A DNA stretch of 64,000 nt from Candidatus Iainarchaeum sp. (lineage in GTDB: Archaea > B1Sed10-29 > WALL01). Shown here in pieces: positions 5,827 to 59,805 of this stretch (the stretch's first letter is position 1; each line of letters opens with the position of its first letter). The translations under genes and the position numbers were made by a program. A model generated the notes under the pieces. It searched no databases. It was not told the DNA's origin and saw nothing but the letters and a program-made list of their open reading frames with translations. The stretch lies in the NCBI GenBank assembly GCA_023129115.1, contig JAGMCR010000009.1:6121-70120 (forward strand), given 5' to 3'.

Positions 5827-6945
5827 ATGGTGAAAAAGATTGCCGAGGGGAGCCACGCCGTGGCAGAAGTCGTGCGGCTTCTGAACCCGGACGTGCTGGC
5901 AATGTACCCAATCACTCCGTCGACACATATCCCTGAGCGGCTGAGCGACTTCGAGTCCGACGGGGAATTGGATGGCACGATAATCCGTGTCGACTCAGAG
6001 TTTTCGGCGATGTCCGCGCTCGTGGGCGCGAGCGCGACTGGCGTGAGGACGTACACGGCGACGAGCAGCCAAGGGCTGGCACTAATGCACGAGGTCTTGT
6101 TCGTCGCGTCCGCGATGAGGCTGCCGATTGTCATCACGGTCGTGAACCGCGCGCTTAGCGCGCCATTGAATATCTTTAACGACTGGCAGGACTCGATTAG
6201 CGAGCGCGACTCGGGATGGATACAGATGTACGGAGAGGACTCGCAGGAAGTCGCGGACCTGATGGTGCAGGCGTACCGCATCGCGGAAGACAAGAGGGTG
6301 CTGCTGCCGGTCATGGTGTGCATGGACGGCTTTTTCTTGAGCCATACCTACGACGTGATTGACGTGCCCGAGGACCTGAAGGGGTTCGTGCCTCCGTACA
6401 AGCCAGAGCACGCGTACCTGGACCCGAAGAGGCCGCAGACGCAGGGCGCGTGGGCCATGCAGGAGCCCTACTTCGAGCTGAGGAAAGAGCTGGAGGAGGC
6501 GGTGGGCGCGGCGCTGCCAGTGATAAAAGAGGTTCATGACGAGTTTGCGAAAGTGTTCGGCCGAAGTTATGGGGGCGGGGCCATTGATGTCTATGGCGAG
6601 GGCGACACTGTCGTTGTGTCCATGGGCAGCGTGTGCACCAACCTAAAGGTCCTTGCCGACAGGCTGGGCTTCCAGGTGGTGCGCGTGAGGTGCTACCGGC
6701 CGTTCCCGGCCGAAGACGTTAAGAAGGCGCTGGAGGGGAAGAAGGCGGTTGCGGTGTTCGAGAAGGACGTTGCGTACGGCACTGGCCACGGCGCGCTCTA
6801 CAACGACGTGCGGGCGTGCACGACGGGCAAGGCAGTGAACTTCATCGTCGGGCTCGGCGGGCTGGACGTCCCAATCAATGCACTGGAGAAGATGTGCGGG
6901 GAGATAGATGCCATGAATGACGGCGAGACGAGGTGGCAGAGATGA
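5827..6945 (+). CDS. porA: 2-oxoacid:ferredoxin oxidoreductase, alpha subunit
   Basis: 372 aa. The N-terminus EGSHAVAEVVRLLNPDVLAMYPITPST is typical of alpha subunits. The operon context supports the call. Confidence 0.85.
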   Translation: MVKKIAEGSHAVAEVVRLLNPDVLAMYPITPSTHIPERLSDFESDGELDGTIIRVDSEFSAMSALVGASATGVRTYTATSSQGLALMHEVLFVASAMRLPIVITVVNRALSAPLNIFNDWQDSISERDSGWIQMYGEDSQEVADLMVQAYRIAEDKRVLLPVMVCMDGFFLSHTYDVIDVPEDLKGFVPPYKPEHAYLDPKRPQTQGAWAMQEPYFELRKELEEAVGAALPVIKEVHDEFAKVFGRSYGGGAIDVYGEGDTVVVSMGSVCTNLKVLADRLGFQVVRVRCYRPFPAEDVKKALEGKKAVAVFEKDVAYGTGHGALYNDVRACTTGKAVNFIVGLGGLDVPINALEKMCGEIDAMNDGETRWQR

Positions 6946-6951
6946 CTATGA

Positions 6952-7010
6952 TGCCTCTGGGGGCATCTGTTGATGCCCCCAAGTCTACCGCGCCAGCTGA
7001 GGTTTCGGCT
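6952..7010 (+). repeat. G-run hairpin mini-element, copy a (inserted between porA and porB)
   Basis: Sequence is TGCCTCT-GGGGGCATC-tgtt-GATGCCCCC-AAGTCTACCGCGCCAGCTGAGGTTTCGGCT. It has a perfect 9-bp stem (6959-6967 / 6972-6980). It is bracketed by the 16-bp direct repeat GAGGTGGCAGAGATGA (6930-6945 and 7016-7031). Confidence 0.8.
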
Positions 7011-7027
7011 GAGATGAGGTGGCAGAG

Positions 7028-7915
7028 ATGAGTAGTGAAGTTATTTCGTCTGGGCACTCGGCTTGCGCCGGGTGCGGCGAAATCATTGGCGAGCGCATGG
7101 TGCTCGAGGCGCTGGGCAAGGACGTGATTGTTTGCCAGGCGACGGGGTGCATGGAAATCACTACAACGCCTTATCCGCGGACCGCGTTCAAGGTGCCGTG
7201 GCTGCACGTGACTTTCGAGAACGCGGCGTCTGCCGCCAGCGGGATTGTCGAGGCCGACAGGAAGCTCGGCCGCAATACCACTGTCGTGGCCATCGGCGGC
7301 GACGGCGGCATGATGGACATCGGGGTTCGCGCCTTGAGCGGGGTGATGGAGCGGGGCCACGACCTGATGCTGGTCGTGACCGATAACGAGGCGTACATGA
7401 ACACCGGGATACAGCGGTCGAGCGGCACGCCGAAGTACGCGGCGACTACGACTACTCCGGCGGGCAGCGTTGTGCCTGGGAAGAGGGAGTGGAAGAAGAG
7501 CATTTCGAGGATTGCGATTGCGCACGGGATTCCGTACGTCGCGACGGCAAGCATTGGGTTCCCCGAGGACCTGGTGGCCAAGGTAAAGAAGGCCCAGGGC
7601 ATCAAGGGCCCAAAGCTGCTGCACATTTACACGCCGTGCCCTGTGGGGTGGGGGTATGACTCGAGCAAGACGGTTTACTACGCCAAGAAGATTGTCGAGA
7701 CCGGGCTGTGGCCGCTTTACGAGATAGAGAACGGGAAGCTCACGATAAGCCAGAGGCCGACGTTCGCGCCGCTGGAAGAATATTTCACTGGCCAGAAGCG
7801 GTACAAGCACATCAAGCCCGAGCACATCAAGGAAGTCAGTGAGCGCGTCAAGGCTGGCTGGAAAGAACTGGAAAAGCAGGAGAAGGCCGGCGTCGACTTG
7901 ATGCTTCTTCCCTAG
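7028..7915 (+). CDS. porB: 2-oxoacid:ferredoxin oxidoreductase, beta subunit (TPP-binding)
   Basis: N-terminal SGHSACAGCG cluster and the TPP motif GGDGGMMDIG. ATG 7028 is preceded by GAGGTG. The track start at GTG 7019 lies inside the duplicated 16-mer. Confidence 0.85.
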   Translation: MSSEVISSGHSACAGCGEIIGERMVLEALGKDVIVCQATGCMEITTTPYPRTAFKVPWLHVTFENAASAASGIVEADRKLGRNTTVVAIGGDGGMMDIGVRALSGVMERGHDLMLVVTDNEAYMNTGIQRSSGTPKYAATTTTPAGSVVPGKREWKKSISRIAIAHGIPYVATASIGFPEDLVAKVKKAQGIKGPKLLHIYTPCPVGWGYDSSKTVYYAKKIVETGLWPLYEIENGKLTISQRPTFAPLEEYFTGQKRYKHIKPEHIKEVSERVKAGWKELEKQEKAGVDLMLLP

Positions 7916-10184: not shown

Positions 10185-10250
10185 TGCCTCTCTTAAGGGG
10201 GGCTACGCCAATTGGCGTAGCCCCCCAAGTTGTGGGGATTAACCCCCATA
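10185..10250 (+). repeat. G-run hairpin mini-element, copy e
   Basis: TGCCTCT-cttaa- followed by the perfect 30-nt palindrome GGGGGGCTACGCCAATTGGCGTAGCCCCCC (10197-10226), then AAGT. A small second hairpin TGGGG-attaac-CCCCA follows at 10233-10248. The 3' boundary is uncertain. Confidence 0.7.
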
Positions 10251-10305
10251 GTACGCGGCACAAAAGCACCTAGATTTTTATACTCATAGCTTGTATTCCA
10301 CCTCA

Positions 10306-17095: not shown

Positions 17096-17776
17096 ATGGA
17101 TCCTCTTAAGCAACAGATAGCTGGTGAGATAGCCCTTGCCAGGAACCCTGGGGCCACCATAAAGAAGTGGCGGGAAATCTTCGGGATAACCCAGACCGAG
17201 CTTGCGGACTACCTAGGCATAACACCGTCGACCATAAGCGACTACGAGAGCAACAGGCGCAAGAGCCCGGGCATCGGCGTCATCCGCCGGTTCGTCGACG
17301 CGCTCGTCGACATCGACAGCAAGAAGGGCGGCTGGGTGCACAAAAAGCTCGCGGGGGAGAAGAAGCCGGACGTGTTCAGCGTCGTGGACTTCGAGAAGCC
17401 AATCCCGGCGAAGTCTTTCGTTAACGCGATAAGCGGCCGGGTCGTCACGAACAAGCGGAAGCTGGCGGACATCCAGCTCTCGGGGTACTCACTCGTGGAC
17501 TCGCTGCGGGCGATACTGGAGCTTCCCGTGGACAACTTCGCGAACATTTACGGCAGGAGCAGCAACCGCGCGGTCGTCTTCACCCACGTCGGGGTTGGGA
17601 GGTCGCCGATGGTCGCAATCCGCGTGACCAACCCAAAGCCGAGCCTCGTCGTCTACCACGGGCTCGACAAGATGGACGACCCAATCGCCAAGAAAATCAG
17701 CGAGGTCGAGAGAATACCAATAATCCTCACCAACCTAGACATCGACACGATAAAGGAAAAGCTGGGAAGGTTTTAG
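17096..17776 (+). CDS. XRE-type HTH transcriptional regulator with C-terminal domain
   Basis: HTH segment [34 protein letters not shown]. It lies directly upstream of the HMG-CoA synthase gene. Confidence 0.7.
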
Positions 17777-43214: not shown

Positions 43215-43270
43215 ACCAACTGCCTTGTGATTTGTACCCTAACCTTCTATCGCATGCTTAAAAAAACTTC

Positions 43271-43753
43271 CTAGTCAGAGAGCCCTGGATACAGCTCAAT
43301 CGTGCCTTCTGCAATCTTTTTTCCGAGCCTTGTCAAGTAGACTCTGCCGTCCTTTGTTTTCTTGAGGTGGGTGAACTGCATCCCCTGCTTTACCTCTTTT
43401 GTTTGCTTTATCTTTACCGCATTCTGTGGGGAAAAAGCGCCTGATTTTAAGAGCTGTGCATACAATTCCGCTGACTCATCTGGCTGTGGGAAATACTTTT
43501 GTTTTGCGTACTGGAAGCCCATGCCGGGCATTGTGAGCAGCCCATGCGCCTTGTAAAGAACTCTATTCCCTGTCTTCACTTCAATTATCTTGGGGCCTCG
43601 CTGGGCTTCTTCTATTACCCTTAAGTAGCGGCCGACGGTTTCCGGCCTCAGCCCCGTTTCTTGGGAAATCCGGTGTTTTGAAAGGGCTACATCATTATGC
43701 TTCTCGATGTAGTCCATCATCTCAGTTACGATTTCAAGCGCGTCCTTTCTCAT
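43271..43753 (-). CDS. Winged-helix DNA-binding protein (160 aa)
   Basis: N-terminal wHTH-like segment SKHRISQETGLRPETVGRYLRVIEE. AT-rich gene. Confidence 0.5.
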   Translation of the reverse strand: MRKDALEIVTEMMDYIEKHNDVALSKHRISQETGLRPETVGRYLRVIEEAQRGPKIIEVKTGNRVLYKAHGLLTMPGMGFQYAKQKYFPQPDESAELYAQLLKSGAFSPQNAVKIKQTKEVKQGMQFTHLKKTKDGRVYLTRLGKKIAEGTIELYPGLSD

Positions 43754-43851
43754 TGGGTGATTTATAGCTATTGTAGTATATAAATATTACTATTACAATA
43801 GTAAATAACCTTATATGGCTCGGCAGAGAAAGTTTTCCTGGGGAGAGTAGA

Positions 43852-44112
43852 ATGAGAGACTACGAAGAAGCTGTGCTTATTGCTCTTTTTGATGAGAAAA
43901 TAATTGGCTCTAGCTATAAGCCAATTGAAAAGGCTGCTCGTAAAATTAACTGGGGTGGGATTGCCAGGAAGTACGATGTAAAGAAGTCTTTCAAGAAAGT
44001 CCTGCAGGGACTTGCCCGGAAGGGCGTTGTAAGTGACCATGGCAAGTCAGGCAGGGTGGTCTCCCTGACACTGGCTGGACTGGCTTACCTAAGGAGCGAG
44101 TTGGAAGTATAA
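43852..44112 (+). CDS. Small winged-helix protein (86 aa)
   Basis: ...VLQGLARKGVVSDHGKSGRVVSLTLAGLAYL is a wHTH recognition helix plus wing. It is divergent from 43271-43753 across a palindromic TATA region (43768-43801). Confidence 0.5.
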   Translation: MRDYEEAVLIALFDEKIIGSSYKPIEKAARKINWGGIARKYDVKKSFKKVLQGLARKGVVSDHGKSGRVVSLTLAGLAYLRSELEV

Positions 44113-44129
44113 AGGCGTTCTGGTCTTCT

Positions 44130-44798
44130 TCAAGAGACTTGGCCCTGGAGTTCCTTGAACAGGCGGAAGGCTGTTATCGCATCGTCGTCTGTGAGAGTGA
44201 AAGTTATCTCCGTGTAGCTGGACACCATTTGCAAGACGTTTATTGAGTTGCGTGCCAGCACCCCACTCAAAAAGTAAAGGAAGCCAGGGGTGCTGATGGA
44301 CCGCGCTTCGCTGAACTCAAGGGCAGATAACCCCCTCATTGTCCCCAAGAGCTTTTTCTTTGGGACGAGGGAGACAAGCCGGTCGAAGCGTTTTTCCTCA
44401 AGGACGACTTCTATCTCGCTTGTGCTAAGTATCAAGTAAAAATTCTCGCCCTTCCCCCACTCGACTTCTTTCATCACCCTGAAAATCGCTTTCTCGACTT
44501 CTTCGTCCCGCTCCAGCGCAACGTCACACATCCCGGACTTCAAAGAAAAACGGCAGCCCTTCAGCACGTCCAGGACTTCCTCGGAAACGACTTCCTTCGC
44601 CAGCTTGTCCTCATACCTCTTCAAGGCCAGCACAATTGCTTCCCGCGTCACCTTCCTGCCGAACTCCGCTTCCACCTCCGTCTTTATGGAGTTGGCAAAA
44701 GCAGAGCAATTCAGCACGCCCAGCCGCAGGGAATCGCGGACAAAGACCAATCGGTCCACCCTCTGCCGCACTAGCCCCGCCAGGCTACTCTTCTCCAT
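44130..44798 (-). CDS. ACT-domain-containing protein (predicted small-molecule-binding regulator)
   Basis: C-terminal ...STPGFLYFLSGVLARNSINVLQMVSSYTEITFTL... is an ACT-like beta-alpha-beta-beta-alpha-beta segment. The family call is tentative. Confidence 0.5.
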   Translation of the reverse strand: MEKSSLAGLVRQRVDRLVFVRDSLRLGVLNCSAFANSIKTEVEAEFGRKVTREAIVLALKRYEDKLAKEVVSEEVLDVLKGCRFSLKSGMCDVALERDEEVEKAIFRVMKEVEWGKGENFYLILSTSEIEVVLEEKRFDRLVSLVPKKKLLGTMRGLSALEFSEARSISTPGFLYFLSGVLARNSINVLQMVSSYTEITFTLTDDDAITAFRLFKELQGQVS

Positions 44799-44851
44799 AA
44801 TGTTATATTTGTAACATTATGTATATATATGTAACTAAGCCCAATTATCGC

Positions 44852-45529
44852 ATGAAATTTGCAATCTCGAGGGAAGTGGCCAGAAAATACCCTGGACTGA
44901 AGATTGGGATTGTGGTTGTGAAAAGGCTTGACAACAGCGATTACCCCGACTCGATAAGGCTCTTGAAGCAAAACGCGGAAGAATACACCAAGTTCAATTT
45001 CCGGGGCCTTGTGCATCCCCACTTGTTGGCCTGGAGAGAGGCCTACAAGAAGTTTGGCTGCGATGGCGGGTGTTCTGCTGAGTGGCTGGTCAAGCGTATA
45101 TTGGAGAAGAAAGCACTGCCGAAGATAAACAAGCTCGTCGACATCTACAACCTCGTGTCAGCCAAGAACGCCATGCCAATCGGCGGGCAGGACCTCGACA
45201 GGATTTGTGGGGACATAGTCTTGAGGATTTCACCGGGCGGCGAAAGGTTTGTGGGGATTGGCGGGAAAGAAGAAAAGACAACCCCCGGTGAAGTGGTTTA
45301 CGCCGACGATGAAAAAGTGTTGTGCAGGAATTGGAACCAAAAAGATTGTGATGCCGCCAAGTTTACCAAGGAAACCAAAAAAGCTGTCTTGTTCGTCGAT
45401 GGAATCGGTGGCATAAGCGAGGAAGCAGTAAAGAAAACAGCGAAGGACTTGGAGAGTATTATAACAGAGTACGGGAACGGCGTGGCAACTTCTTATTTTC
45501 TAGTGGGAGCCAACAGTGTTTCGCTGTGA
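44852..45529 (+). CDS. B3/B4 tRNA-binding-domain protein (PheRS-beta B3/4-like)
   Basis: KINKLVDIYNLVSAKNAMPIGGQDLD and CRNWNQKDC are typical of stand-alone B3/4-domain proteins. I start at MKFAIS (ATG 44852). Confidence 0.6.
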   Translation: MKFAISREVARKYPGLKIGIVVVKRLDNSDYPDSIRLLKQNAEEYTKFNFRGLVHPHLLAWREAYKKFGCDGGCSAEWLVKRILEKKALPKINKLVDIYNLVSAKNAMPIGGQDLDRICGDIVLRISPGGERFVGIGGKEEKTTPGEVVYADDEKVLCRNWNQKDCDAAKFTKETKKAVLFVDGIGGISEEAVKKTAKDLESIITEYGNGVATSYFLVGANSVSL

Positions 45530-45573
45530 GTCAGGTCACAGGAAAGATGATTTCGAGGCCTGCCTTGAAGCCG

Positions 45574-46116
45574 TCAGTCACTTTCTTCTCCGCCCTGTAT
45601 CTCTTCCATCACTTCGTCGATTCTTTCGTGGAGCTCTTTAAGAGTGCCCTCGTTGCGGATGATGTGGTCCGCCATCATGAACACAGTCTCCATGCCCTTG
45701 TTCTTGAGGTCGCGCTCGTCCCTCCCGAAGAACGCTTTCTTGTCCTGGGGGTCACTGTCGTCGCGGCGGGTGTAGCGCATTTCGCGCGGGGCTGACGCCA
45801 TTAGGAGGAAGAAGTGGGCGGTCTTGGCACGGAAGAACTCAACTTCTTGGGGGCTTCGGAATCCCGTTATGACGGCGTCCTCGGCGTCTATGATTGGGAA
45901 GAGCATGTTGGCCATTACGCCCATTCCACCTTCCTTGCGGAGCTCGTCGCCTAAGCGGCTTGCGTTGTCCTTGGTCGGCTCGAGGCCGCGCTTCTCAAGT
46001 TCCTTGAGGAAGACGTCATGGTAAAAGTCAAACTGCTTGAAGCCGTACTCCTTCATCAAGTAATGCGCGACAGTGTCCTTGCCGCTCCTCGCCGGGCCGG
46101 TCAAACCGATAATCAT
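45574..46116 (-). CDS. P-loop kinase, archaeal UPF0200 / dephospho-CoA-kinase-like family
   Basis: Walker A IIGLTGPARSGKDT, followed by ...GFRSPQEVEFF... and FFGRDERDL, as in UPF0200 proteins. I start at ATG 46116. Confidence 0.6.
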   Translation of the reverse strand: MIIGLTGPARSGKDTVAHYLMKEYGFKQFDFYHDVFLKELEKRGLEPTKDNASRLGDELRKEGGMGVMANMLFPIIDAEDAVITGFRSPQEVEFFRAKTAHFFLLMASAPREMRYTRRDDSDPQDKKAFFGRDERDLKNKGMETVFMMADHIIRNEGTLKELHERIDEVMEEIQGGEESD

Positions 46117-46148
46117 AGTAACCACGTTAGTAAAGGAACCTCGGAAAG

Positions 46149-47421
46149 TTATACAAGAAAGCTTTATAAAAGCATGAAGAGGTATTAAAGTATATGAAAA
46201 TTCACACCTTGGACGTGTTGCCCCGTCAGGTGAGAACAAAAGCTGGTAAAAAGCGGCTGCTCGTCTTGAAAGAAGGTTCCATCAGCTCCCTTCTGCCCAT
46301 AAAACTCAGGATATTGCGCCTACTCTCTAAGAAAGCCTTAAAAACAACCCAAGTCACGGAATTGCTAGGGATCCAGAAAAGGACGACCAGAAAATTTTTA
46401 AATGAGCTCGAGATTGAAGAAAAAATTGTGAGGACAGAAGGCAATCGCATTAACAACTCTTTTCGTTTCGCTGATTCATGGAGAATTGTTGGCAAGATAA
46501 GTGGCATCCCAAATAAACCCCCAAAAGACAGGGTATGTGTCTGGTACTCCACCAAGCACACTAATTACTCTACCCGTCATTACTGTTTTTTGCCGAAAGA
46601 GATAGGGCTAACAGACAACATCGCGTCTGCTATTGGCATATTTGATGGTGAGGGCAGCAAAACAAAAATTACTACGTTGGAGATTGTGAACAACGAGCCA
46701 CTGGTGATTAAATGCCTACTGGAGTTTTTTGGGATTTTTGGCATTCGGAAAAAAGACTGGAAGTGGAGATTAACATTCAATATTAAACTGAAGGACAAGT
46801 TGAGTGTAAAGGCTATTAAGAAGGCAAGAGAGTATTGGGTCAAGAGCACAAAGATATCCGCTGAAAACGAGACTGCTAGCTCCCCACAGTTTTTGGGTAC
46901 CCGCATAGGCAAAATCAGACGAGGCCCTCCGTGGGGGGCTTTGAGTATTTTTTACAATAGTGTGATACTGCGGAGCGTGCTAGCCTCAATTATGGAAAAC
47001 TTAAAACCAATGATACTACAGGATCCGCAGCTGGTCGCGGGGTATCTTAGGGGCTACCTCGCTGCAGAAGCATACGTTGGAGCAAACGACAGGGCGATAC
47101 AAACAGCCTCAACAAGAAAAGAAGAACTTGCTTATCTTGGAAAATGCTTTGATGTTATAGGGGTTAAAGCATCCATGAGTAAAGCAACAAGCACGTCGCC
47201 ACCACGCATTATTGTTACCAATTTTGATTCTTTCATGAAGCTATACAAGTTAGACGTGTTCAGGCTTCATCCATACAAAAAGGCTAACTTGCTTTCAAAA
47301 TTACTAAATTATACCCTATTAACTGGGGATGACAAAGAAAAAATTGGAAAAGAATTGAAGACACTAAACAACAAAATAGAAAACAGAGAAAAGCCTTTCA
47401 AAAAATTTACTTATACAAAAA
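46149..47421. mobile_element. Putative insertion of the LAGLIDADG gene, bounded by a short direct repeat that copies the gatD tail
   Basis: TTATACAAGAA (46149-46159) versus TTATACAAAAA (47411-47421), 10/11. The right copy is the gatD 3' end (reverse complement ...TTTTTGTATAAGTAA). The left copy (reverse complement TTTCTTGTATAAC) sits in the promoter region of the kinase gene. The repeat is short and AT-rich, so chance is not excluded. Confidence 0.35.
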
Positions 47422-47447
47422 CATATCTGGCTCGAGCTGGGGGTTGA
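46194..47447 (+). CDS. Free-standing LAGLIDADG homing-endonuclease-like protein with N-terminal wHTH
   Basis: Two LAGLIDADG-type motifs, IASAIGIFDGEGS and LVAGYLRGYLAAEAYVG, lie about 150 aa apart. An N-terminal wHTH (LRLLSKKALKTTQVTELLGIQKRTTRKFL) precedes them. This is the most AT-rich gene here. Its last 41 nt overlap the gatD 3' end. Confidence 0.65.
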   Translation: MKIHTLDVLPRQVRTKAGKKRLLVLKEGSISSLLPIKLRILRLLSKKALKTTQVTELLGIQKRTTRKFLNELEIEEKIVRTEGNRINNSFRFADSWRIVGKISGIPNKPPKDRVCVWYSTKHTNYSTRHYCFLPKEIGLTDNIASAIGIFDGEGSKTKITTLEIVNNEPLVIKCLLEFFGIFGIRKKDWKWRLTFNIKLKDKLSVKAIKKAREYWVKSTKISAENETASSPQFLGTRIGKIRRGPPWGALSIFYNSVILRSVLASIMENLKPMILQDPQLVAGYLRGYLAAEAYVGANDRAIQTASTRKEELAYLGKCFDVIGVKASMSKATSTSPPRIIVTNFDSFMKLYKLDVFRLHPYKKANLLSKLLNYTLLTGDDKEKIGKELKTLNNKIENREKPFKKFTYTKTYLARAGG

Positions 47448-48741
47448 GCTCGCCCTTAAGATTCGATGTCATGAGTTCTTTTACTTTGTCACCCTTGGCA
47501 TGCGCCAGCACCCAGCCGAGCTTTACGTACGCCGTCTCGGCGGTCATGTCGTACGCCGGGATTGCGCCCGCGTCGTGGTACAAAATGCGCAGGTTGGTGT
47601 AAACATTCGGGTTCACCGTGCCGTAGATGCACTGCGTCGCGACGACAATGGGGACACCGCTTTTGACGGCGGACTTTATGCGGGGAATCCAGCTCTTGCG
47701 CGCCTTTGTCGGCACGTGGCCGAGCGCAGTGCCCTCGATGACGAGGCCCTTGGCGCCGCTGTCCACGTGGTAGTCGATTATTTTTGGGTCCGAGCCGGGA
47801 TACGCCTTCAGCAGGGCGATGTGGCGCTCGAATTTCGTGTCTACCTCGGTTTTACCAGTGCCGCGCTTCTTAAATTTAGAAATGGGCTCGATTTTCCCGT
47901 CAGGGTAAATCTTGGCGAGGGGGTAGTCATTAATAGGCTTAAAAGCAGGCCTGACAGTACTACTCATTTTCCTCACTTTCGTTCCCCTCAAGAAATAGCA
48001 GTAATCATCAGAAAAGGTAGCGTGCATACAAGTCCCGACTTCAGCTATGTCGGACAGCGCGGCGTAGGCGGAACAAGTAAGGTTCAGCACCGCGTCCGCA
48101 GAGCCGCGGTCGCTCGAGCGCTGCGCGCCCGTGATTATGACTGGCTTCGTGGTGTTGAGCATGAAGGACAAGGCGGCTGAGGTGTAGTGCATGGTGTCCG
48201 TCCCTTGGGTAATTATGACGCCCTCTGCCTTGTCAAGCGCTTTTGCAGTGGCCTTGGCAAGGTCCACCCAGTCAAGCGGGTCAAGGTCCTCACTCATTTT
48301 CTCGAGGACTGTCTTGGTCTTGATGCACGCAATGTCGCCGAGCTCGGGCACGAGTGCAATCAAGTCGTCGCCCGTCATGTCAGTATAGACCGCGCCCGTG
48401 GAATAGTCAACGCGCGAAGTGATGGTGCCACCCGCACCGAGGAGCGCGATGTGCTTCTTTCCCTTGCACGACTGCTTTGCCTTTGCGTGGCCGCCGGTCT
48501 CGTACTTGTATTCCTTGGTGATTCTCTTGGGCTCGGGAGTGGAAGACTTGCTGATGGTTTGGCCCTCGTACTTTATGCCAATGTTGTAGCCGTTGTCCAG
48601 CTTGAGCACGATGTGGTCCGGTGAAGCAGTGATTTCGGGCGACGGCATTAACAGGCCTTCCTCACTCCCAACAACAATTCTGTCGCCTACGGCTGCCTTC
48701 GCCGCCTTCAGGGCACCCTGTATCTCCCTGGAATAAGCCAT
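47407..48741 (-). CDS. gatD: Glutamyl-tRNA(Gln) amidotransferase subunit D
   Basis: N-terminal AspRS-like beta domain plus asparaginase domain (LLGAGGTITSRVD, ITQGTDTM). Confidence 0.85.
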   Translation of the reverse strand: MAYSREIQGALKAAKAAVGDRIVVGSEEGLLMPSPEITASPDHIVLKLDNGYNIGIKYEGQTISKSSTPEPKRITKEYKYETGGHAKAKQSCKGKKHIALLGAGGTITSRVDYSTGAVYTDMTGDDLIALVPELGDIACIKTKTVLEKMSEDLDPLDWVDLAKATAKALDKAEGVIITQGTDTMHYTSAALSFMLNTTKPVIITGAQRSSDRGSADAVLNLTCSAYAALSDIAEVGTCMHATFSDDYCYFLRGTKVRKMSSTVRPAFKPINDYPLAKIYPDGKIEPISKFKKRGTGKTEVDTKFERHIALLKAYPGSDPKIIDYHVDSGAKGLVIEGTALGHVPTKARKSWIPRIKSAVKSGVPIVVATQCIYGTVNPNVYTNLRILYHDAGAIPAYDMTAETAYVKLGWVLAHAKGDKVKELMTSNLKGELNPQLEPDMFLYK

Positions 48742-49428
48742 TCAACCACTCGACGTTAGCTTTTCGCCCTTCTCGTTTTTAATGATAGGCACGGCCACGA
48801 CTTCCAGTGGCTGGAGCCCGAGCTCGATGCGCTTTTCATTGATTAGGTCGGCGCTGGGCCTCGTCTCGTCGCTGACCACGATGGTGCTGAACCGCGGCTC
48901 AAGCGCAAAGCCGTAGACGTCATCTATCTCGCAAATCACTGCGCCCCAGCCCATTTCCGAGAGGAACCGCTCGAGGCCTGCCTGCCTCTCCGCGAACGAA
49001 GGCACGTTGGAGTGCTTGGAAGACGCGAACTCGTCGCTCGTCAAGCCGATTTCCACTATCTTCCCAAGCGCGAACGCCATGCTGAACAAGTACTCGTGGC
49101 CCTTGTGGATAGCGCTGAAGGTCCCGCCAACACAGACCATGTCGCCCTTCTCTGCCGAAGCGTCCGGGAGGCGGATGTGCTCCAGGGAGCTGGAAGGAGT
49201 GGCAGCACTGGAGGAGCCGGCTTCTTCGCCACTGGGGGGGCTGGCAACTGCCAGCCCCCCGGTTTCAGCTTCTTCCTCCCCCGGTTGTGGCTCCTCTTCG
49301 ACGGTTTCTGGCTCTTCTTCAGTTTCTTGTTTTTCCTCCCCGGTTTCTTCTTCGGGCTCCAAAAGCAGGTCCTCGTCTTCTTCAATGTCCATTGCCGGGT
49401 CCAGCGGCGGGGGTGGGGGGCTGTTCAT
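48742..49428 (-). CDS. coaD: Phosphopantetheine adenylyltransferase (archaeal type) with a 96-aa acidic low-complexity N-terminal extension (or start at ATG 49140)
   Basis: The catalytic domain begins at MVCVGGTFSAIHKGHEYLF (nucleotidyltransferase H-x-G-H). Upstream is an in-frame P/E-rich region that contains a hairpin-element palindrome. Confidence 0.7.
   Translation of the reverse strand: MNSPPPPPLDPAMDIEEDEDLLLEPEEETGEEKQETEEEPETVEEEPQPGEEEAETGGLAVASPPSGEEAGSSSAATPSSSLEHIRLPDASAEKGDMVCVGGTFSAIHKGHEYLFSMAFALGKIVEIGLTSDEFASSKHSNVPSFAERQAGLERFLSEMGWGAVICEIDDVYGFALEPRFSTIVVSDETRPSADLINEKRIELGLQPLEVVAVPIIKNEKGEKLTSSG
49235..49270 (+). repeat. G-run hairpin element-like palindrome embedded in an ORF, copy f
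   Basis: GGGGGGCTGGCA-AC-TGCCAGCCCCCC (49235-49260) followed by GGTTTCAGCT (compare GGTTTCGGCT at the end of copy a). It reads in frame as ETGGLAVASPP on the minus strand. Confidence 0.55.
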
Positions 49429-51382: not shown

Positions 51383-51946
51383 ATGCGGCTCGACAGAGTT
51401 TTAAACGAACTGCTTGGTTCTCAAGCCAAAGTAAGGATTACAAGGGTGGTTGTCACTAACCCCCGGCTGGAGCACACCGGGAGGGAACTTGCCCTGATTG
51501 CGGAAATATCTCAACCACAAGCCAAGGAAGCGCTGGGGGTGTTGGAGACTTATGGGGTGGTTGGGAGCAGGACCGTGGGGCGGGCAATCGTGTGGAGACT
51601 AAATAAAAAAAACTATATTTACAAAGAATTGCTGCTGCCTTTGTTCACGAATGAAAAAATGGTGCTAAGGGATTTGAAAAAAGAACTTGCCCGGACTCTC
51701 GAGCCATTCTCGGAAAAAGTCATTTTATTTGGGAGCATTGCCCGGGAGGGGGGCGGGTCGTCAAGTGACTTGGACTTGTGTGTTGTCACAAAGAACAAGA
51801 AACTAGCCAAAAAAGCACTCTTGGATTTGGGGGCAGAAATTGCCAGAAAGTATAATATAGTTGTTTCGTCAGTAATTTATTCGCCGAAAGAATACAAAAC
51901 ATCAAAAATAATCGAGGGGGGAGAGGCAATATGCGAACGAGGATAG
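51383..51946 (+). CDS. Nucleotidyltransferase (MNT-type) with N-terminal wHTH
   Basis: NTase motif LFGSIAREGGGSSSDLDLCVV (G-S-x-x-R...D-x-D). An N-terminal wHTH-like region precedes it. Confidence 0.7.
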   Translation: MRLDRVLNELLGSQAKVRITRVVVTNPRLEHTGRELALIAEISQPQAKEALGVLETYGVVGSRTVGRAIVWRLNKKNYIYKELLLPLFTNEKMVLRDLKKELARTLEPFSEKVILFGSIAREGGGSSSDLDLCVVTKNKKLAKKALLDLGAEIARKYNIVVSSVIYSPKEYKTSKIIEGGEAICERG

Positions 51947-52329
51947 TGGAAAAATTCAAGTACAATAATTTTCTTCAAAAGGCTAGAGAGTTTTATGACG
52001 AGATGAATGAGGCCCATGCAGCAAAGCGCTGGAATGCTGTTGGATTAAACGGTATTCACTGTGCAATCAGCTGCTGCGACGCGGTGACAGTTTACTTTCT
52101 CGGCAAACGAAGTGCTGGAGAGCGACACGAAGAAGTGGTCAAACTGCTACAGCAAATAAAGGACGTCGATGAAAAAGTAATAAAGCAGAGGATTGTGCAG
52201 ATTCTTGATGTGCTGAGGTCCAAAACACGAGTGGAGTACCACGCAGAAGTATTTTCTGAGAAAGAAGCTGGCATGATAGTCAAGCAAACAAAACGGGTTT
52301 ATGAATGGACAACTGGGCTACTTAAATGA
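51931..52329 (+). CDS. HEPN-domain protein (partner of the MNT gene)
   Basis: 132-aa helical protein that overlaps the MNT gene by 16 nt. It has R-x-x-x-H (RVEYH) near the position of the HEPN R-x(4-6)-H motif. The pairing is typical of HEPN/MNT modules. Confidence 0.6.
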   Translation: MRTRIVEKFKYNNFLQKAREFYDEMNEAHAAKRWNAVGLNGIHCAISCCDAVTVYFLGKRSAGERHEEVVKLLQQIKDVDEKVIKQRIVQILDVLRSKTRVEYHAEVFSEKEAGMIVKQTKRVYEWTTGLLK

Positions 52330-53399
52330 TAATCAAGCAGTCGCCGCAAGATTTTGTTGTCGAAGAAATAACTCTTGACGGGGAAGTGCTGGAGGTCGGG
52401 AAAGAATATTCTTTTTCTGGTGGGGAGGGAGAGCACCTTGTTTTTGTGCTGGAGAAGACAAACTGGGCGACTATGGGCGCGATGAAGGAATTGGGAAAGC
52501 GCTTGCATTGCTCGGAAAAGCGCTTGGGGTTCGCGGGCACCAAGGACCGGCGCGCCGTGACAACGCAGAGGTGCTCTGCGTGGAACGTGAAGAAGGAAGA
52601 GCTTGACAAAGTAAATATAAAAGACATAACGCTGAAGCCGCTCTGCTATGGCGAGCGCGTGGGGCTCGGCGACCTGTGGGGGAACAGGTTCACGATAACA
52701 GTGCGGGAGTTCGACGGCGAGGGAAAAATGCCGGAGAAAATCCCGAATTTTTTCGGGCCGCAGCGGTTTGGGGGGCAGAGGCCGATAACCCACCTCGTCG
52801 GCAAGGCGATTGTGAACGGCCAGTTCCACGACGCCGCCGACATATACCTTTTTGAGACGATGGAGGGCGACCCGGAGAGGGAAGTGCGGGAGAAATGCAG
52901 GGGCGACTACGCCCGCGCCCTCAAGGAATTCCCGATGCACCTTAAGTACGAGCGGTCGATGCTTGGCTGGCTCGCGAAGAGCCCGGGCGACTGGGTGGGT
53001 GCGCTGCGGGCATTGCCGCGGAAATTGCTGGTGATGTTCGTTCATGCTTACCAGTCGCACTTGTTCAACCGCGTGCTCGAGGAGCGGGGCATTGAGCCGA
53101 GGAAAGGGGACGTCCTTGAGGAGGGAGTGCCCACGGGCCCGCTGTTTGGCATGGAGTGCCCGCTCGCCGCCGGGGAGGCGGGCGAGATTGAGCGCCGCGT
53201 GCTTGAGGGCGAGTGGCTGGGGCTGAGGGACTTCGAAATCCACGGCATGCCTGACCTGACGAGCAAGGGCATGAGGCGGAGGCTCTGGATTGAGCCGAAG
53301 GGCTTCGAGGTGTTGGAGGGGGGCGGGAGCTGGATAAAAGTAAGGTTTTCGCTGCCGAAGGGGTGCTACGCGACTACTGCGTTAGATTACCTGAAGTAG
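52326..53399 (+). CDS. truD: tRNA pseudouridine synthase TruD/Pus7 family
   Basis: FAGTKDRRAVTTQ catalytic-Asp motif, and NFFGPQRFG. Confidence 0.85.
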   Translation: MIIKQSPQDFVVEEITLDGEVLEVGKEYSFSGGEGEHLVFVLEKTNWATMGAMKELGKRLHCSEKRLGFAGTKDRRAVTTQRCSAWNVKKEELDKVNIKDITLKPLCYGERVGLGDLWGNRFTITVREFDGEGKMPEKIPNFFGPQRFGGQRPITHLVGKAIVNGQFHDAADIYLFETMEGDPEREVREKCRGDYARALKEFPMHLKYERSMLGWLAKSPGDWVGALRALPRKLLVMFVHAYQSHLFNRVLEERGIEPRKGDVLEEGVPTGPLFGMECPLAAGEAGEIERRVLEGEWLGLRDFEIHGMPDLTSKGMRRRLWIEPKGFEVLEGGGSWIKVRFSLPKGCYATTALDYLK

Positions 53400-53400
53400 A

Positions 53401-53500
53401 TGCCTCTGGGGGGCGTCAACTGCCACCGGCTTAGGGGGGCGCCGACTGGCGCCCCCCTAGTCCATTGCGATGGCTTGGTAGTCTAACGCGAAGTTATCCT
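53401..53500 (+). repeat. G-run hairpin mini-element, copy b (composite/nested)
   Basis: It starts 1 nt after the truD stop with TGCCTCT-GGGGGGCGTCAACTG, whose 15 nt GGGGGGCGTCAACTG match copy c. A complete hairpin TAGGGGGGCGCC-gact-GGCGCCCCCCTA follows at 53432-53459, then TAGTCCATTGCGATGGCTTGGTAGTCTAACGCG. It is bracketed by GTTAGATTACCT at 53381-53392 and 53506-53517. Confidence 0.7.
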
Positions 53501-54353
53501 AAGCTGTTAGATTACCTTCAGTAAGGTTTCCCGGCTCGGCAGGAATGGCCAAGAAGTACGGCAGGCCTTCCCTCAGGAGCCCTATTGTCGCGTTGACCGC
53601 TTTTTGCGAGTCGCCGGGGGCGGGCTGTATGTCTATGGTCGAGTTGCCCACGTGCACCTGTGTCGTGGGGTAGGACGGGTAGCGCAGGATTATGGACGGC
53701 TCCTCGAGGGCCTGGCGGCACTTTTCGACCGGGACTTGCGCGTTTGAGCTGTTGGTGCACGAGAGCCAGTCGCCGTCCGCCTGCACGCCGTAGACGCTCA
53801 CGTTCACCCCCTCTGACGCGAGGTGGAAGACGAGCGGCACGAACGCGTCGACTGCTCCCTGGGGGTCTTCGCCGGGCTTTACCTCGAAAAAGAAGTTCAC
53901 TTCGGGGGAGTAGCCCAGCAATGCCGCCTTGAGCAGGGGGTTCCAGTGGTACGAGTAAAAGATTATGCCTGCCTGCTTGTCGCCGGCGGCGTTGTAGTCT
54001 ACGTAGAGGCCTTCCGAGTTGTGCAGGAGCTTGTGGCCGTTCTCGTCAGTGGCGTAGACGCTTATTTGCTTAAGGCCGACGTCGTCGTACGGCGAGACGA
54101 AGTAGCTGAAGAAGTAGCTGTTGCCCTCCTGCCTGTCAAGGGTGGCCTCGCGGTCCGGGAGGAGAACTGATATCTGGTTGAGCGGAATGCTGGAGTCCAC
54201 GCGTATCGTGGCGTAGCCTATGGCTGCGGGCTGGGGATGGGCGGAGACATTGAGCTCGGCGCGCTCGCTGTGGGACGTGCCGAAGTACGAAGTGATGCCT
54301 ATTGAAATGACGACTATAAGGGCGAGGAATATCCATTGCTTTTGTGCTTTCAT
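53499..54353 (-). CDS. Secreted protein with signal anchor, several N-x-S/T sequons, function unknown
   Basis: N-terminal MKAQKQWIFLALIVVISIGITSYF. It is downstream of, and possibly co-regulated with, the large surface protein gene. Confidence 0.55.
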   Translation of the reverse strand: MKAQKQWIFLALIVVISIGITSYFGTSHSERAELNVSAHPQPAAIGYATIRVDSSIPLNQISVLLPDREATLDRQEGNSYFFSYFVSPYDDVGLKQISVYATDENGHKLLHNSEGLYVDYNAAGDKQAGIIFYSYHWNPLLKAALLGYSPEVNFFFEVKPGEDPQGAVDAFVPLVFHLASEGVNVSVYGVQADGDWLSCTNSSNAQVPVEKCRQALEEPSIILRYPSYPTTQVHVGNSTIDIQPAPGDSQKAVNATIGLLREGLPYFLAIPAEPGNLTEGNLTA

Positions 54354-57752: not shown

Positions 57753-58049
57753 ATGGTCAATCCCGCCAACTTCACGGCGCTGCCCATTGCATTTAACGAG
57801 CCGAGCGGGCTCATAGTGCTCGCCGTGGGCGCAGTCGTCGTCGTTGCCGCGTTCTACATATTCTTCCGCATAATCAAGGACGTCATCGCAAACGCCATAA
57901 TCGGCGGAATCGGCTTGATAGTGCTGCACTTCGCCGGCCCACACATCGGCGTCAGCGTGCCCATCGACTTGATAAACATCGTAATCGCCATCCTCGGCGG
58001 ATTGCCGGGACTGGCCATAATAGTCGTTTTCTCGGCTCTTGGGCTATAG
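57753..58049 (+). CDS. Small membrane protein, BofA-like (tentative)
   Basis: 98 aa with 3 hydrophobic helices. The pattern IANAIIGGIGLIVLHF...INIVIAILGGLPGLAIIV recalls the BofA family. I start at ATG 57753. Confidence 0.4.
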   Translation: MVNPANFTALPIAFNEPSGLIVLAVGAVVVVAAFYIFFRIIKDVIANAIIGGIGLIVLHFAGPHIGVSVPIDLINIVIAILGGLPGLAIIVVFSALGL

Positions 58050-58110
58050 CCTAGCTCAGTAGACTAGGGGGGCGTCAACTGACGCCCCCCCTAGGCTGGT
58101 TTGAATTAAG
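58050..58110 (-). repeat. G-run hairpin mini-element, copy c
   Basis: Plus strand: CCTAGCTCAGTAGACTA-GGGGGGCGTC-aact-GACGCCCCCC-CTAGGCTGGTTTGAATTAAG, with the stem at 58067-58076 / 58081-58090. Its two ends abut the TAG of the BofA-like gene and the TAA of the duplicated radical SAM tail. Confidence 0.75.
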
Positions 58111-58198
58111 TTATTTGAATACTCCAGCAATCTTCGCGCTGCACGACGGGCACTTCCCCTTGTCCACGTGGCTTTCCAGCAGCGCGAAGCCGTGCCGC
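58111..58198 (-). pseudogene. Displaced duplicate of the last 29 codons of the radical SAM gene
   Basis: The minus strand reads RHGFALLESHVDKGKCPSCSAKIAGVFK-stop, versus RHGFALLESHVDKGKCHSCGQKIAGVFK-stop in the real gene. 58149-58198 is identical to 58294-58343 (50/50). The last 39 nt differ at 14 positions. Confidence 0.8.
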
Positions 58199-58254
58199 AG
58201 CCCAAACCTGAGCTGGCGAGGTAGACTTGGGGGGCACAAAGCCCCCCAGAGGCA
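58199..58254 (-). repeat. G-run hairpin mini-element, copy d
   Basis: The reverse complement is TGCCTCT-GGGGGGC-tttgt-GCCCCCC-AAGTCTACCTCGCCAGCTCAGGTTTGGGCT. It starts 1 nt after the radical SAM TAA. Its flanks are nearly identical to copy a. Confidence 0.8.
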
Positions 58255-58255
58255 G

Positions 58256-59302
58256 TTACTTAAAAACGCCGGCAATCTTCTGCCCGCAGCTGTGGCACTT
58301 CCCCTTGTCCACGTGGCTTTCCAGCAGCGCGAAGCCGTGCCGCTTTATCAATGCCTCGCCGCAGTTGGGGCAGTGCGTGTTCTCGAACGGGTCGCCGGGA
58401 TAAGTGTTGCCGCAGTACACGTACTTCACGCCGCTCTCGAGCGCGATTTCCCTTGCCTTTACGAGCGTCTCGCGCGGGGTGGGGTTGGTGTTCCGCATCT
58501 TGTACGCGGGAAAGAACGCGGAGAAGTGGAGGGGCATGTTTGGGTCGAGGTCGTGCACGAACTCCGAGATTTGTAGTATGGACGCGTTGTCGTCGTTCTG
58601 GCCGGGGATGATGAGGTTGGTCACCTCGACCCAGGTCTTGTTCCGCTTCATTCTTTTTATTGAGTCGAGGACGTGCTGCATCTCGACGCCGCCGCACACT
58701 TTTTTGTAGAACTCTTCGTTGCCCTTTACGTCGACGTTGGCGGCGTCCAATTCCTTGTAGTCCTTGAGCATTTCTTTGGTCATGTAGCCGTTCGTGACGA
58801 AGACGTTCTTGATTTTTTGTTTGTGCGCGAGCACGCTGGTGTCCTTGGCGTACTCGTAGAAAATCGTTGGCTCCGTATAAGTGTAGCTGATGCTTGGTGT
58901 TTTGTACTCGCCCGCCAATCGCACGACTTCACTTGGCGGGACCTCGCGCTGCGGCCCGGCCTCCCACGCGGCCTGGCTGATTTCCCAGTTCTGGCAGTGC
59001 TGGCAATGCAGGTTGCATCCCACAGTCGCGATGCTGAGGGTTTCGGTGCCCGGCAAAAAATGAAACAGCGGCTTTTTTTCGATGGGGTCCGTGTTGACCG
59101 AGCATGGCTTGGCGTACGTCATTGCGTACAGGGTGCCGCGGATGTTCTCGCGCACCTGGCAGTTGCCCCTGCCGCCCTCGGGGATTTTGCACCGCCGGTT
59201 GCACAGGCTGCACTGGACGGCCTTGTCCTTGAGCTTTTTGTATAGGTACGCTTCTTTCACGCGAGAGACAAAGCGCCCCGCCGATATAAAGGTTTTGTGC
59301 AA
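58256..59302 (-). CDS. AmmeMemoRadiSam-system-type radical SAM enzyme (PflA-like activase family)
   Basis: CNLHCQHCQNW radical SAM cluster, an N-terminal CSLCNRRCKI cluster and a C-terminal CPNCG...CHSCG zinc ribbon. Confidence 0.75.
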   Translation of the reverse strand: MHKTFISAGRFVSRVKEAYLYKKLKDKAVQCSLCNRRCKIPEGGRGNCQVRENIRGTLYAMTYAKPCSVNTDPIEKKPLFHFLPGTETLSIATVGCNLHCQHCQNWEISQAAWEAGPQREVPPSEVVRLAGEYKTPSISYTYTEPTIFYEYAKDTSVLAHKQKIKNVFVTNGYMTKEMLKDYKELDAANVDVKGNEEFYKKVCGGVEMQHVLDSIKRMKRNKTWVEVTNLIIPGQNDDNASILQISEFVHDLDPNMPLHFSAFFPAYKMRNTNPTPRETLVKAREIALESGVKYVYCGNTYPGDPFENTHCPNCGEALIKRHGFALLESHVDKGKCHSCGQKIAGVFK

Positions 59303-59555: not shown

Positions 59556-59628
59556 GGCTCGGGTAGTGTAACGGCTGGCACAGTAGGTTGTGGTCCTGCT
59601 AGAGCGGGTTCGACTCCCGCCCCGAGCC
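59556..59628 (+). tRNA. tRNA-His (anticodon GTG) with genome-encoded G-1
   Basis: Hand-folded structure:
- G-1
- acceptor GCTCGGG / CCCGAGC
- D stem GTGT / GCAC
- anticodon stem GTAGG / CCTGC with loop TTGTGGT
- 4-nt variable loop
- T arm GCGGG-TTCGACT-CCCGC
- discriminator C pairing with G-1
No encoded CCA. Confidence 0.85.
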
Positions 59629-59805
59629 CTAAACGAGGTGGTGAAGATGATTAAGGGTGTTTCACTTCACCAAAGCCTACTTTCTGGAGACGCAAGGCTC
59701 GGCAGCCCTCATAGCTGAAGCAGTCATTCTCAGGAATGGCATTGTTTGCAATGTAGAGATTATTGTTAATGGTTCAATGCGGGGCAAAGCAGAGGTGAGT
59801 TTTTC

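Follow-up and report, generated by a model that had tools for sequence, protein, structure and literature searches.

A small non-coding element carrying hairpins lies between truD, the gene for tRNA pseudouridine-13 synthase, and its convergent neighbour in a 64,000-nt stretch of a Candidatus Iainarchaeum sp. genome (contig JAGMCR010000009.1, positions 6,121 to 70,120; this whole stretch is referred to as the window). It is best read as one copy, since rearranged, of a small non-coding two-hairpin family in a DPANN (Diapherotrites/Iainarchaeota-like) lineage. The same order of a gene end, the element and a second copy of the gene end was found at three loci, with repeats of approximately 18-27 nt at truD, 24 nt at porA/porB and 90 nt at a radical-SAM gene. 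These flanking repeats are single-copy at the empty sites of relatives (L007 for truD, L013 for porA/porB and L004 for the radical-SAM gene), and two of the empty sites show overlapping neighbours, 26 nt tail to tail at truD and a stop/start ATGA at porA/porB. The three filled sites and their matching empty sites suggest that the element is mobile, and the reading that we favour, as probable although far from certain, is a dispersed element resembling repetitive extragenic palindromes (REPs) and MITEs (miniature inverted-repeat transposable elements), inserted with a long target duplication of variable length. Three insertions of one small element would have duplicated exactly the stretch holding the overlap, so that an overlap becomes an intergenic spacer and both genes stay whole. 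This would represent a concrete route, dated by relatives, for the separation of overlapping genes.

The truD junction in the window and in related genomes

In the window, truD ends with GCG TTA GAT TAC CTG AAG TAG (…ALDYLK-stop). According to a first-pass annotation made from the sequence of the window, this LDYLK-stop end is followed one nucleotide later by the element and recurs 125 nt downstream as LDYLQ-stop, inside the last codons of the convergent gene. All of these observations hold. The element starts at 53400 with ATGCCTCT, and the tail GTTAGATTACCTGAAGTA at 53381-53398 has a second copy, GTTAGATTACCTTCAGTA, at 53506-53523, matching at 16/18 positions with a longest exact run of 12 nt and reading LDYLQ-TAA. 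On the opposite strand, this downstream copy supplies the final 8 codons of the convergent gene, which ends in EGNLTA-stop with the stop codon at 53499-53501. The terms "new" and "old" for the upstream and the downstream tail are a convention: the tail is duplicated, the upstream copy is kept by truD and the downstream copy by the convergent gene.

The significance of the repeat, which the annotation had proposed to check, was assessed by collecting all 18-mers of the window that have a copy with at least 16/18 matches within the next 250 nt. Such 18-mers occur at only 7 places, one of them a tandem repeat, and 3 of the 7 coincide exactly with the flanks of hairpin elements (6924-32, 53381 and 58147-83). 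The background rate for such nearby copies at unrelated positions is about 1e-4. This empirical control supports the significance of the truD tail repeat.

The ends of truD were aligned for seven relative loci (L001, L002, L003, L006, L007, L008 and L009), with TruD proteins 71-82% identical. Close TruD homologues all end in ALDYL[KE] or ALNYLE. The names of the TruD matches, Diapherotrites or 'archaeon', place the window in a DPANN lineage. In L007 (TruD 78-79% identical) the element is absent and the two genes overlap tail to tail by 26 nt, with the convergent stop CTA placed within the ACT ACT of truD (…GCCA[CTA]CTGCATTGAATTACTTGGAGTAG). In the window, the convergent stop (53499) and the relic truD stop (53524) are likewise 26 nt apart, in the same codon phase. 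This coincidence directly demonstrates the ancestral tail-to-tail overlap and its separation by a copy of the tail together with the element, both of which had been proposed in the annotation and are borne out by the comparison of L007 with the window and L001. The proposal had been made to depend, beforehand, on element-free relatives having their truD stop at the position equivalent to the downstream one, and this is where the stop of L007 lies. Among the remaining element-free loci, the overlap is 8 nt in L008 and 9 nt in L003, while L009 shows a gap of 3 nt.

Two relatives carry the element at the same junction. In the single-cell genome L001 (TruD 82%) it has a simple form, with the stop TAG followed by ATGCCTCTGGGGGCGTCATTTGACGCCCCCAAGTCTACCGCGCCAGCTCAGGTTTGGGCTG and then TGAT, its left end being ATGCCTCT. 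The relic after the element reads ACT ACT GCT CTG GGA TAT CTG AAG TAG (TTALGYLK-stop), and the convergent stop lies inside this relic tail, 26 nt before its end. The two truD tails of L001 differ at 9/27 positions, mostly synonymously. In L006 (TruD 81%) a diverged copy has both junctions in common with L001, but most of the relic tail has been overwritten. TruD has 357 aa in the three loci with the element and 360 aa in the others, and the proteins of the first group are only marginally closer to one another than to that of L007. One ancestral insertion at truD is the economical reading of this distribution rather than a proven one. In L002, a 67-aa open reading frame (ORF) with no Pfam match on record (4112-4315) lies between truD and the convergent gene; this unrelated ORF is another way of opening the truD overlap.

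The composite structure of the truD copy

L001 and L006 have simple forms of the element; relative to these, the copy in the window has an additional orphan half-stem and a second complete hairpin, while the canonical small hairpin at the 3′ end is missing or degenerate. The annotation had described a composite, nested element, composed of a half-stem identical for 15 nt to copy c (described below), a complete second hairpin and a last segment resembling the right flank of copy a at porA/porB. All three components are confirmed (Table 1), and for the 15-mer GGGGGGCGTCAACTG, 4 matches at no more than 2 mismatches were found where 0.15 are expected by chance. The composite or nested reading is partly supported. 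The element shows tandem similarity with a 26-nt period (73%), and the window copy may stem from a nested insertion, a local tandem duplication or recombination between copies.

The predicted RNA fold of the element has z = -6.7. The minimum-free-energy fold is closed by pairing of GCGTTAGATTACC in the truD tail with the element motif GGTAGTCTAACGC, which also pairs with the downstream tail (10/11), and a weaker equivalent is predicted in L006. Synonymous choices in the truD tail (TTA, GAT and GCG) raise its complementarity to the motif to 12/13, and the relic tail has the same bases. It appears that both tails, that of truD and the relic, and the element motif between them have become mutually (near-)complementary, which is probably the reason why the two tails are 16/18 alike in the window and only 18/27 in L001.

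The porA/porB and radical-SAM loci

At porA/porB, the empty site in the single-cell genome L013 reads …GGGTGGCAGAGATGAGCAGTG, with the two genes joined by the ATGA overlap. A metagenome relative (L005) carries the element at the same junction as copy a in the window. Between these two organisms the flanks of the element are identical (37/37), in comparison with 84% for the adjacent porB (68% at third positions), and the interiors of the hairpins are unrelated (CATC-TGTT-GATG vs CC-TT-GG). The divergence of the relic tails starts 2-5 nt past the right end of the element. From this we infer that the flanks of copy a are either constrained or recently renewed. Invariant flanks combined with a rebuilt, always-perfect hairpin represent a clean natural example of palindrome-specific turnover.

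An ORF of 29 codons (6942-7031 in the window) extends from the ATGA at the porA stop through copy a to the ATGA at the porB start, and the frame of this bridge is kept open in L005 (1-73), where the hairpin is 6 nt shorter. This ORF could preserve translational coupling across the insert. Translational coupling across an insert has been reported for mycobacterial MIRUs.

At the gene of the AmmeMemoRadiSam-type radical-SAM protein, the single-cell genome L004 has a single tail and lacks the element (copy d). The 90-nt repeat surrounding copy d in the window is bimodal, with 0/50 mismatches in its first part followed by 14/40. Six codon differences between the two tails are synonymous (including TCG/AGC for Ser) and three are non-synonymous. 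The functional tail is 80% identical to that of the single-cell genome and the rest of the gene 79%, and over the last 40 nt the new, the old and the single-cell tail are roughly equidistant (8, 11 and 14 differences). The relic-tail peptide CPSCSAKIAG fits distant homologues (CPxCGAKIAG), and the functional tail (CHSCGQK) fits close relatives (CH[AS]C..K). The duplication may be old, with its proximal 50 nt made uniform by gene conversion; otherwise the end of one tail would be foreign.

Copy c, between the relic of the radical-SAM tail and a convergent gene, is an older related hairpin with a positional counterpart in the single-cell genome. A simple tandem duplication of the radical-SAM tail together with a hairpin was considered and rejected, as the tails are much more alike than the hairpins of c and d, and copies at other loci match d.

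Table 1. Coordinates of element copies, gene ends and associated features in the window
Feature	Position	Strand	Remarks
truD, tRNA pseudouridine-13 synthase, 357 aa	52326..53399	+	ORF list; homologues PF01142, named TruD
Upstream, functional copy of truD end	53373..53399	+	strong repeat 53381-53398; positional equivalent 27 nt
Composite hairpin element after truD	53400..53498	+	compared with simple orthologous copies in L001 and L006
Left end ATGCCTCT of truD element	53400-07	+	
Orphan half-stem, 15-mer GGGGGGCGTCAACTG	53408-53422	+	exact second copy at 58067-58081 (copy c)
Complete hairpin, 12-bp arms, 4-nt loop, 100% complementary	53432-53459	+	
TAGTCCA segment of truD element	53458-64	+	
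Right-flank motif TAGTCTAACGCG	53479-53490	+	10/12 match to AAGTCTACCGCG, flank of copy a (~6980)
Long-range inverted repeat, truD tail GCGTTAGATTACC (53379-91) vs GGTAGTCTAACGC (53477-89)	53379..53489	+	12/13 (92%); encloses the hairpins
Downstream ("old") copy of truD end, PKLLDYLQ-TAA	53498..53524	+	recognisable from 53506; same 26-nt geometry as the L007 overlap
Convergent gene, 284 aa, no Pfam match, adjoins S-layer-like gene	53499..54353	-	orthologues overlap truD in relatives
Copy a, upstream repeat: porA end (…ETRWQR-TGA), former porB Shine-Dalgarno, ATGA overlap	6925..6948	+	
Copy a, canonical element: TGATGCCTCT, hairpin GGGGGCATC-TGTT-GATGCCCCC, AAGTCTACCGCGC, small hairpin CAGCTGA-GGTT-TCGGCTG	6949..7010	+	
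Copy a, downstream repeat: porB Shine-Dalgarno and ATG (porB start 7028)	7011..7034	+	22/24 match
Copy d, functional end of radical-SAM gene (gene 58256..59260/59302)	58254..58343	-	
Copy d, canonical element, minus orientation	58199..58253	-	right flank 30/31 match to L001 truD copy
Copy d, downstream duplicate of radical-SAM end, 90 nt	58109..58198	-	
Copy c, older related hairpin (58067-58091) with TAGTCTAC flank	58040..58100	-	between radical-SAM tail relic and convergent BofA-like gene
Copy b, variant element CTGCCTCT…GGGGGGCTACGCC-AATT-GGCGTAGCCCCCC-AAGT plus mini-hairpin; hairpin 10197-10226	10185..10257	+	divergent intergenic region
Copy f, perfect G7/C6 hairpin (49234-60), element-like ends CGCCACT…CCCCCCGGTTTCAGCT	49227..49272	+	in frame inside a gene

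Anatomy of the element

The canonical unit of about 57-62 nt begins with (A/C)TGCCTCT, continues with a perfect GC-rich hairpin that has a G5-6…C5-6 base and a variable interior, followed by AAGTCTACC(G/T)CGC, and ends with a 7-bp hairpin for which the aligned copies give the consensus CAGCT(G/C)A-GGTT-T(C/G)GGCTG. It is non-coding, it was found at no fewer than three unrelated loci, and the insert measures 55-100 nt. Both hairpins are supported by covariation. Helix 1 is paired in 93% of cells, with 5 of its 10 pairs changed on both sides, and one pair of helix 2 occurs as C-G, G-C and U-A; none of 500 shuffles reaches the observed score, and the controls with a slid register are far lower. 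In helix 2, a conserved T·G pair is compatible with the sense strand of the upstream gene only.

Copies a, c, d and the truD copy lie 0-30 nt past stop codons, and at all three loci (truD, porA and the radical-SAM gene) the element points the same way as the gene whose stop precedes it. On the bottom strand, the GTAG-containing GGTAGACTT precedes the stem in copies a, d and L001 (AGTAGACTA in c), with GTAG placed 4 nt from the stem. The stems continue as AAGTCTACC with no T-run following them.

Insertion site and proposed mechanism

With the empty sites as the reference, the left flank of the element is GAGTAG or AAGTAG at truD and AAGTAA(CT) at the radical-SAM gene. At porA/porB it is ATGAGTAG, with GAGTAG just inside porB, and the upstream copy now reads ATGACTATG. 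At all three sites the left end thus follows RAGTAR, made up at truD and the radical-SAM gene of the final sense codon and the stop codon. With three events, this preference is suggestive and not established. The right end of the element is always GGCTG, and the left boundary of the duplicated stretch is variable.

In regard to the mechanism, the left end of the element would be joined just 3′ of RAGTAR, the opposite strand would be opened at a variable position 20-90 nt upstream, and fill-in would duplicate the stretch in between. Because the duplicated stretch holds the whole overlap, both neighbours would be left intact and separated from each other. DPANN genomes are compact and have many overlapping genes, and almost any insertion should therefore be harmful; the insertions that survive in such a compact genome would be those that leave both neighbours intact. 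After insertion, the interior of the hairpin would turn over without losing its perfect pairing, and the flanks would stay constant, as at the porA/porB site. Such wholesale replacement of a paired interior is what template switching from one arm to the other would be expected to produce, and this is a plausible cause. The truD copy in the window would subsequently have gained extra hairpin material and lost the small 3′ hairpin. Given its co-orientation with the upstream gene, the element is probably transcribed as a structured 3′ untranslated region, with a likely, putative effect at the level of the host in the form of 3′-end protection or insulation of convergent or coupled genes.

A further-reaching and more doubtful proposal, which we put forward tentatively, is that the element represents an undescribed kind of miniature mobile DNA of DPANN archaea, defined by asymmetric hairpin-bearing ends, targeting of RAGTAR/stop codons, duplication of 20-90 nt of upstream target and an interior rebuilt within the palindrome by template switching. 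The duplication might then arise, for instance, when the element is joined into the nascent strand or into a flap displaced at the replication fork, or else between nicks that are widely staggered. If true, such an element would systematically separate overlapping genes in streamlined genomes.

Alternative explanations

Several observations weigh against an insertion with target duplication. The RAGTAR target is based on three events only, terminal inverted repeats are lacking (the left end ATGCCTCTGGGGG bears no relation to the reverse-complemented right end CAGCCCAAACCTG), and hairpin-ended (HUH) elements are not known to make a target duplication. A duplication that simply decayed does not account for the 90-nt repeat, in which the peptide of the relic tail, more than that of the functional one, resembles the consensus seen in distant homologues. 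No flanking repeat was seen at copy b, a variant of the element, and no obvious flanking duplication at a second, related element type (both described below). The copy number is low, with three canonical copies in the approximately 84 kb of the source genome that were read (window and flanking loci, on a scaffold of at least 268 kb), and one exact-pattern scan each (GCCTNNGGGGGN{4,24}CCCCCWAGTCTAC) of genome and metagenome collections gave only two outside loci, one in the whole single-cell assembly and one on a metagenome contig; in the scan of viral contigs no match was found. Neither a transposase, including REP-associated tyrosine transposases (RAYTs) and TnpA/TnpB, nor another enzyme linked to the element was seen in a Pfam scan of ten ORFs of the window (six in the low-GC stretch at ~43-49 kb and four others). 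Finally, the identity of the flanks between organisms could reflect host function and not mobility.

The last point leads to the explanation that the element is a host-function module that does not move, namely a selected signal in the 3′ untranslated region or in DNA that would protect mRNA 3′ ends, insulate convergent or coupled genes or bind a protein, and that ordinary small tandem duplications resolved the overlaps, with the module recruited later. It is in line with the flanks at porA/porB, more conserved between organisms than the adjoining coding DNA, with the covariation of both hairpins and the T·G pair fitting the sense strand only, with the constant orientation relative to the gene whose stop precedes, with the frame of the 29-codon ORF at copy a kept in L005 despite the 6-nt change of the hairpin, and with further G6/C6 hairpins after genes elsewhere in the genome. 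However, the element lies exactly at the repeat junction in 3/3 cases with no spare spacer, which makes two separate events unlikely. In addition, the truD copy is decayed or rearranged in L006 and the window, there is no T-run and consequently no terminator-like site was called at any copy, none of the copies has an Rfam family match, and copy b lies in a divergent promoter region. On these grounds we regard a stationary host module as improbable.

Alternatively, a block made up of the functional tail and the element, or of the element and the relic tail, could have been imported from a related genome by recombination. It would be anchored by homology in the gene on one side, and on the other the joint would be illegitimate or result from a Campbell-type crossover with a small circle carrying tail plus element; the tails would then be homeologous rather than duplicated on the spot. 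The radical-SAM repeat speaks for this possibility, with its 50 identical nucleotides followed by 40 nt that are 35% different, six synonymous against three non-synonymous codon changes, a relic peptide resembling distant homologues next to a functional tail resembling close relatives, and three tails about equidistant over the last 40 nt, as do the mostly synonymous differences between the L001 truD tails (9/27) and the enrichment of long target duplications in naturally competent bacterial species (PMC2853133). On the other hand, the same 60-nt unit with the same ends at three unrelated genes would still need a mechanism of de novo insertion. The functional radical-SAM tail diverges to the same degree as the rest of the gene (80% vs 79%) and so looks native, the divergence at porA/porB begins 2-5 nt from the right end of the element, so that there is no co-transferred tract, and the synonymous excess has a p of only about 0.1 if a fair null model is assumed. 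Import is an unlikely source of the three repeats. Coincidence, with the 18-nt truD repeat arising by chance and the hairpins being unrelated GC-rich palindromes, could be suspected from the shortness of the repeat and from Markov-shuffled controls, in which GC-rich palindromes appear at a low rate (3-21 hairpins of at least 8 bp), yet the repeat statistics, the family matches, the empty and filled sites and the covariation exclude it. Insertion of a dispersed element with a long, variable target duplication accordingly remains our preferred explanation.

Other known types of elements and signals were considered and rejected. Stop-codon readthrough or recoding, suggested by a hairpin 8 nt past the stop, disagrees with early in-frame stops at porA (TGA CTA TGA) and truD and with the relic tail being out of frame. 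An archaeal C/D-box small RNA is not supported, as ATGATGC…CTGA occurs in copy a only, the others having TAGATGCC or TAACTGCC, the spacing is wrong, and the best Rfam score is 20.7 bits against a gathering score of 64. In regard to tRNA-like or other known RNAs, ARAGORN and Rfam give only a tRNA-His at 59557-59629. For a diversity-generating retroelement, only 4/14 mismatches fall at A of the downstream copy, and it is housekeeping genes that are targeted; the Pfam-labelled gene lists of the flanking loci showed no gene for a reverse transcriptase. An integron attC site would be indicated by GTCTAAC and GTTAGAT, which occur in the truD copy of the window only, while canonical copies have GTCTACC and perfect stems. 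Guide-like pairing of AAGTCTACC with the target tails amounts to 6, 8 and 13 bp at truD (L001, L006 and the window, respectively) and is inconsistent at porA and the radical-SAM gene. The right junction shows microhomology of 4 nt (CGGC) for porA and of a single nucleotide for the radical-SAM gene, with none clear for truD, and this is not diagnostic. An intrinsic terminator is rejected for want of a T-run after the stem at any copy, and a classical DDE-type MITE because terminal inverted repeats are absent and the duplication is neither short nor fixed (~18-27, 24 and 90 nt).

Relation to known systems

The closest counterpart is known as insertion with long target duplication and was described (Nobusato et al. 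2000; Furuta, Abe and Kobayashi 2010) for kilobase-sized restriction-modification units in bacteria (PMC2853133). There, the insert lies between direct repeats that are tens of bases long, occur once where a relative has the empty site and often span a start or a stop codon, so that the target gene is left intact; transposase and terminal inverted repeats are lacking, the mechanism is unknown, and no archaeal case passed the screen (PMC2853133). The repeat architecture and the single-copy empty sites are the same in our case, with the difference that the inserted unit is a non-coding hairpin element of about 60 nt, present at several loci and with an apparent short target motif. Our results would extend this type of insertion from bacterial restriction-modification units to a tiny non-coding archaeal element, in which the mechanism would be easier to study.

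REPs are palindromes tagged with GTAG/CGTC and associated with RAYT transposases (PMC3733652, PMC2817692), and their GTAG end often supplies the TAG stop (PMC3733652). The element resembles them as a short GC-rich palindrome that follows genes, lies between convergent or co-directional ORFs, abuts stop codons and is probably likewise transcribed as a 3′ structure; a GTAG also lies near its stem on one strand (here the bottom strand), which is at best a partial match to the REP tag. REPs, however, are bacterial, count hundreds per genome, are usually imperfect, have GTAG directly at the stem and no long target duplications. The present element is low in copy number, its palindrome is perfect, GTAG is 4 nt off the stem, and the 3′ arm is asymmetric and bears the second hairpin.

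Members of the IS200/IS605 family of insertion sequences have no terminal inverted repeats, carry subterminal hairpins at both ends and insert in an orientation-specific manner 3′ of a short motif. A possible likeness to this family, including its miniature derivatives (PATEs), would consist of two hairpins, one near each end, and of the left flanks GAGTAG, AAGTAG and AAGTAA, which come from three independent sites only. Those elements are larger and make no target duplication, in contrast to the long duplications at 3/3 canonical sites here. As defining features of both REPs and IS200/IS605 are lacking (the high copy number and the absence of target duplication, with GTAG placed off the stem), the element is described only as a REP/MITE-like dispersed element.

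Prophages and islands that bring a surrogate 3′ gene end, such as e14 and phage 21 at icd, also produce the order of a functional end, an insert and a displaced, slightly different end. These are large site-specific integrations at one fixed gene, whereas a 60-nt unit is present at three genes here. Variable long target duplications of 8-514 bp are made by IS1634/IS1549 (IS4-related) elements, which are common in Euryarchaeota (PMC2266710); they are DDE elements of 1.5-2 kb with terminal inverted repeats, and the present element is neither of that size nor has such repeats.

Further copies and other observations

The mini-hairpin GGGGATTAACCCC of copy b is inserted within an AAGT/CTAC motif. 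The copy sits in a divergent promoter region, and the ATG of a SpoU-type methyltransferase gene follows 4-5 nt downstream. Copy f lies in frame (…TGGLAVASPPSG…) within a cytidylyltransferase-like gene on the minus strand (48742..49428), in an N-terminal extension that is acidic and variable, and may be an in-gene copy of the element with an internal deletion.

A second, related element type was found in the same genome after the Spt5/NusG gene (L011, 12569-12625) and in L002 (1634-1700). Its layout comprises CAGCCCCTT, a G6 hairpin with a variable interior and then (G/A)CTGAGCTGGCGAGCACCCCCC, and its core CTGAGCTGGCGAG is the reverse complement of CTCGCCAGCTCAG of the first element. It is conserved between organisms at approximately 75% TruD identity, at different loci.

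Directly upstream of truD, between it and eRF1, the window carries a nucleotidyltransferase and HEPN gene pair (51383-52329), similar to toxin-antitoxin systems. The pair is also directly upstream of truD in L009 and is missing in L001, L006 and L008, where eRF1 immediately precedes truD.

Relics of gene tails account for spurious small ORFs and odd C-termini of neighbouring genes, which is relevant for annotation. Elsewhere in the window, positions 42000-48000 have a lower G+C content (46-53% vs ~58%) and contain an ORF (46194..47444) with weak LAGLIDADG_3 and HTH matches. In L011, two tandem G5-6/C5-6 hairpins (17131-17201) follow an acidic 100-aa gene located after the gene for ribosomal protein L10, and it seems generally common in this genome for genes to be followed by such hairpins.

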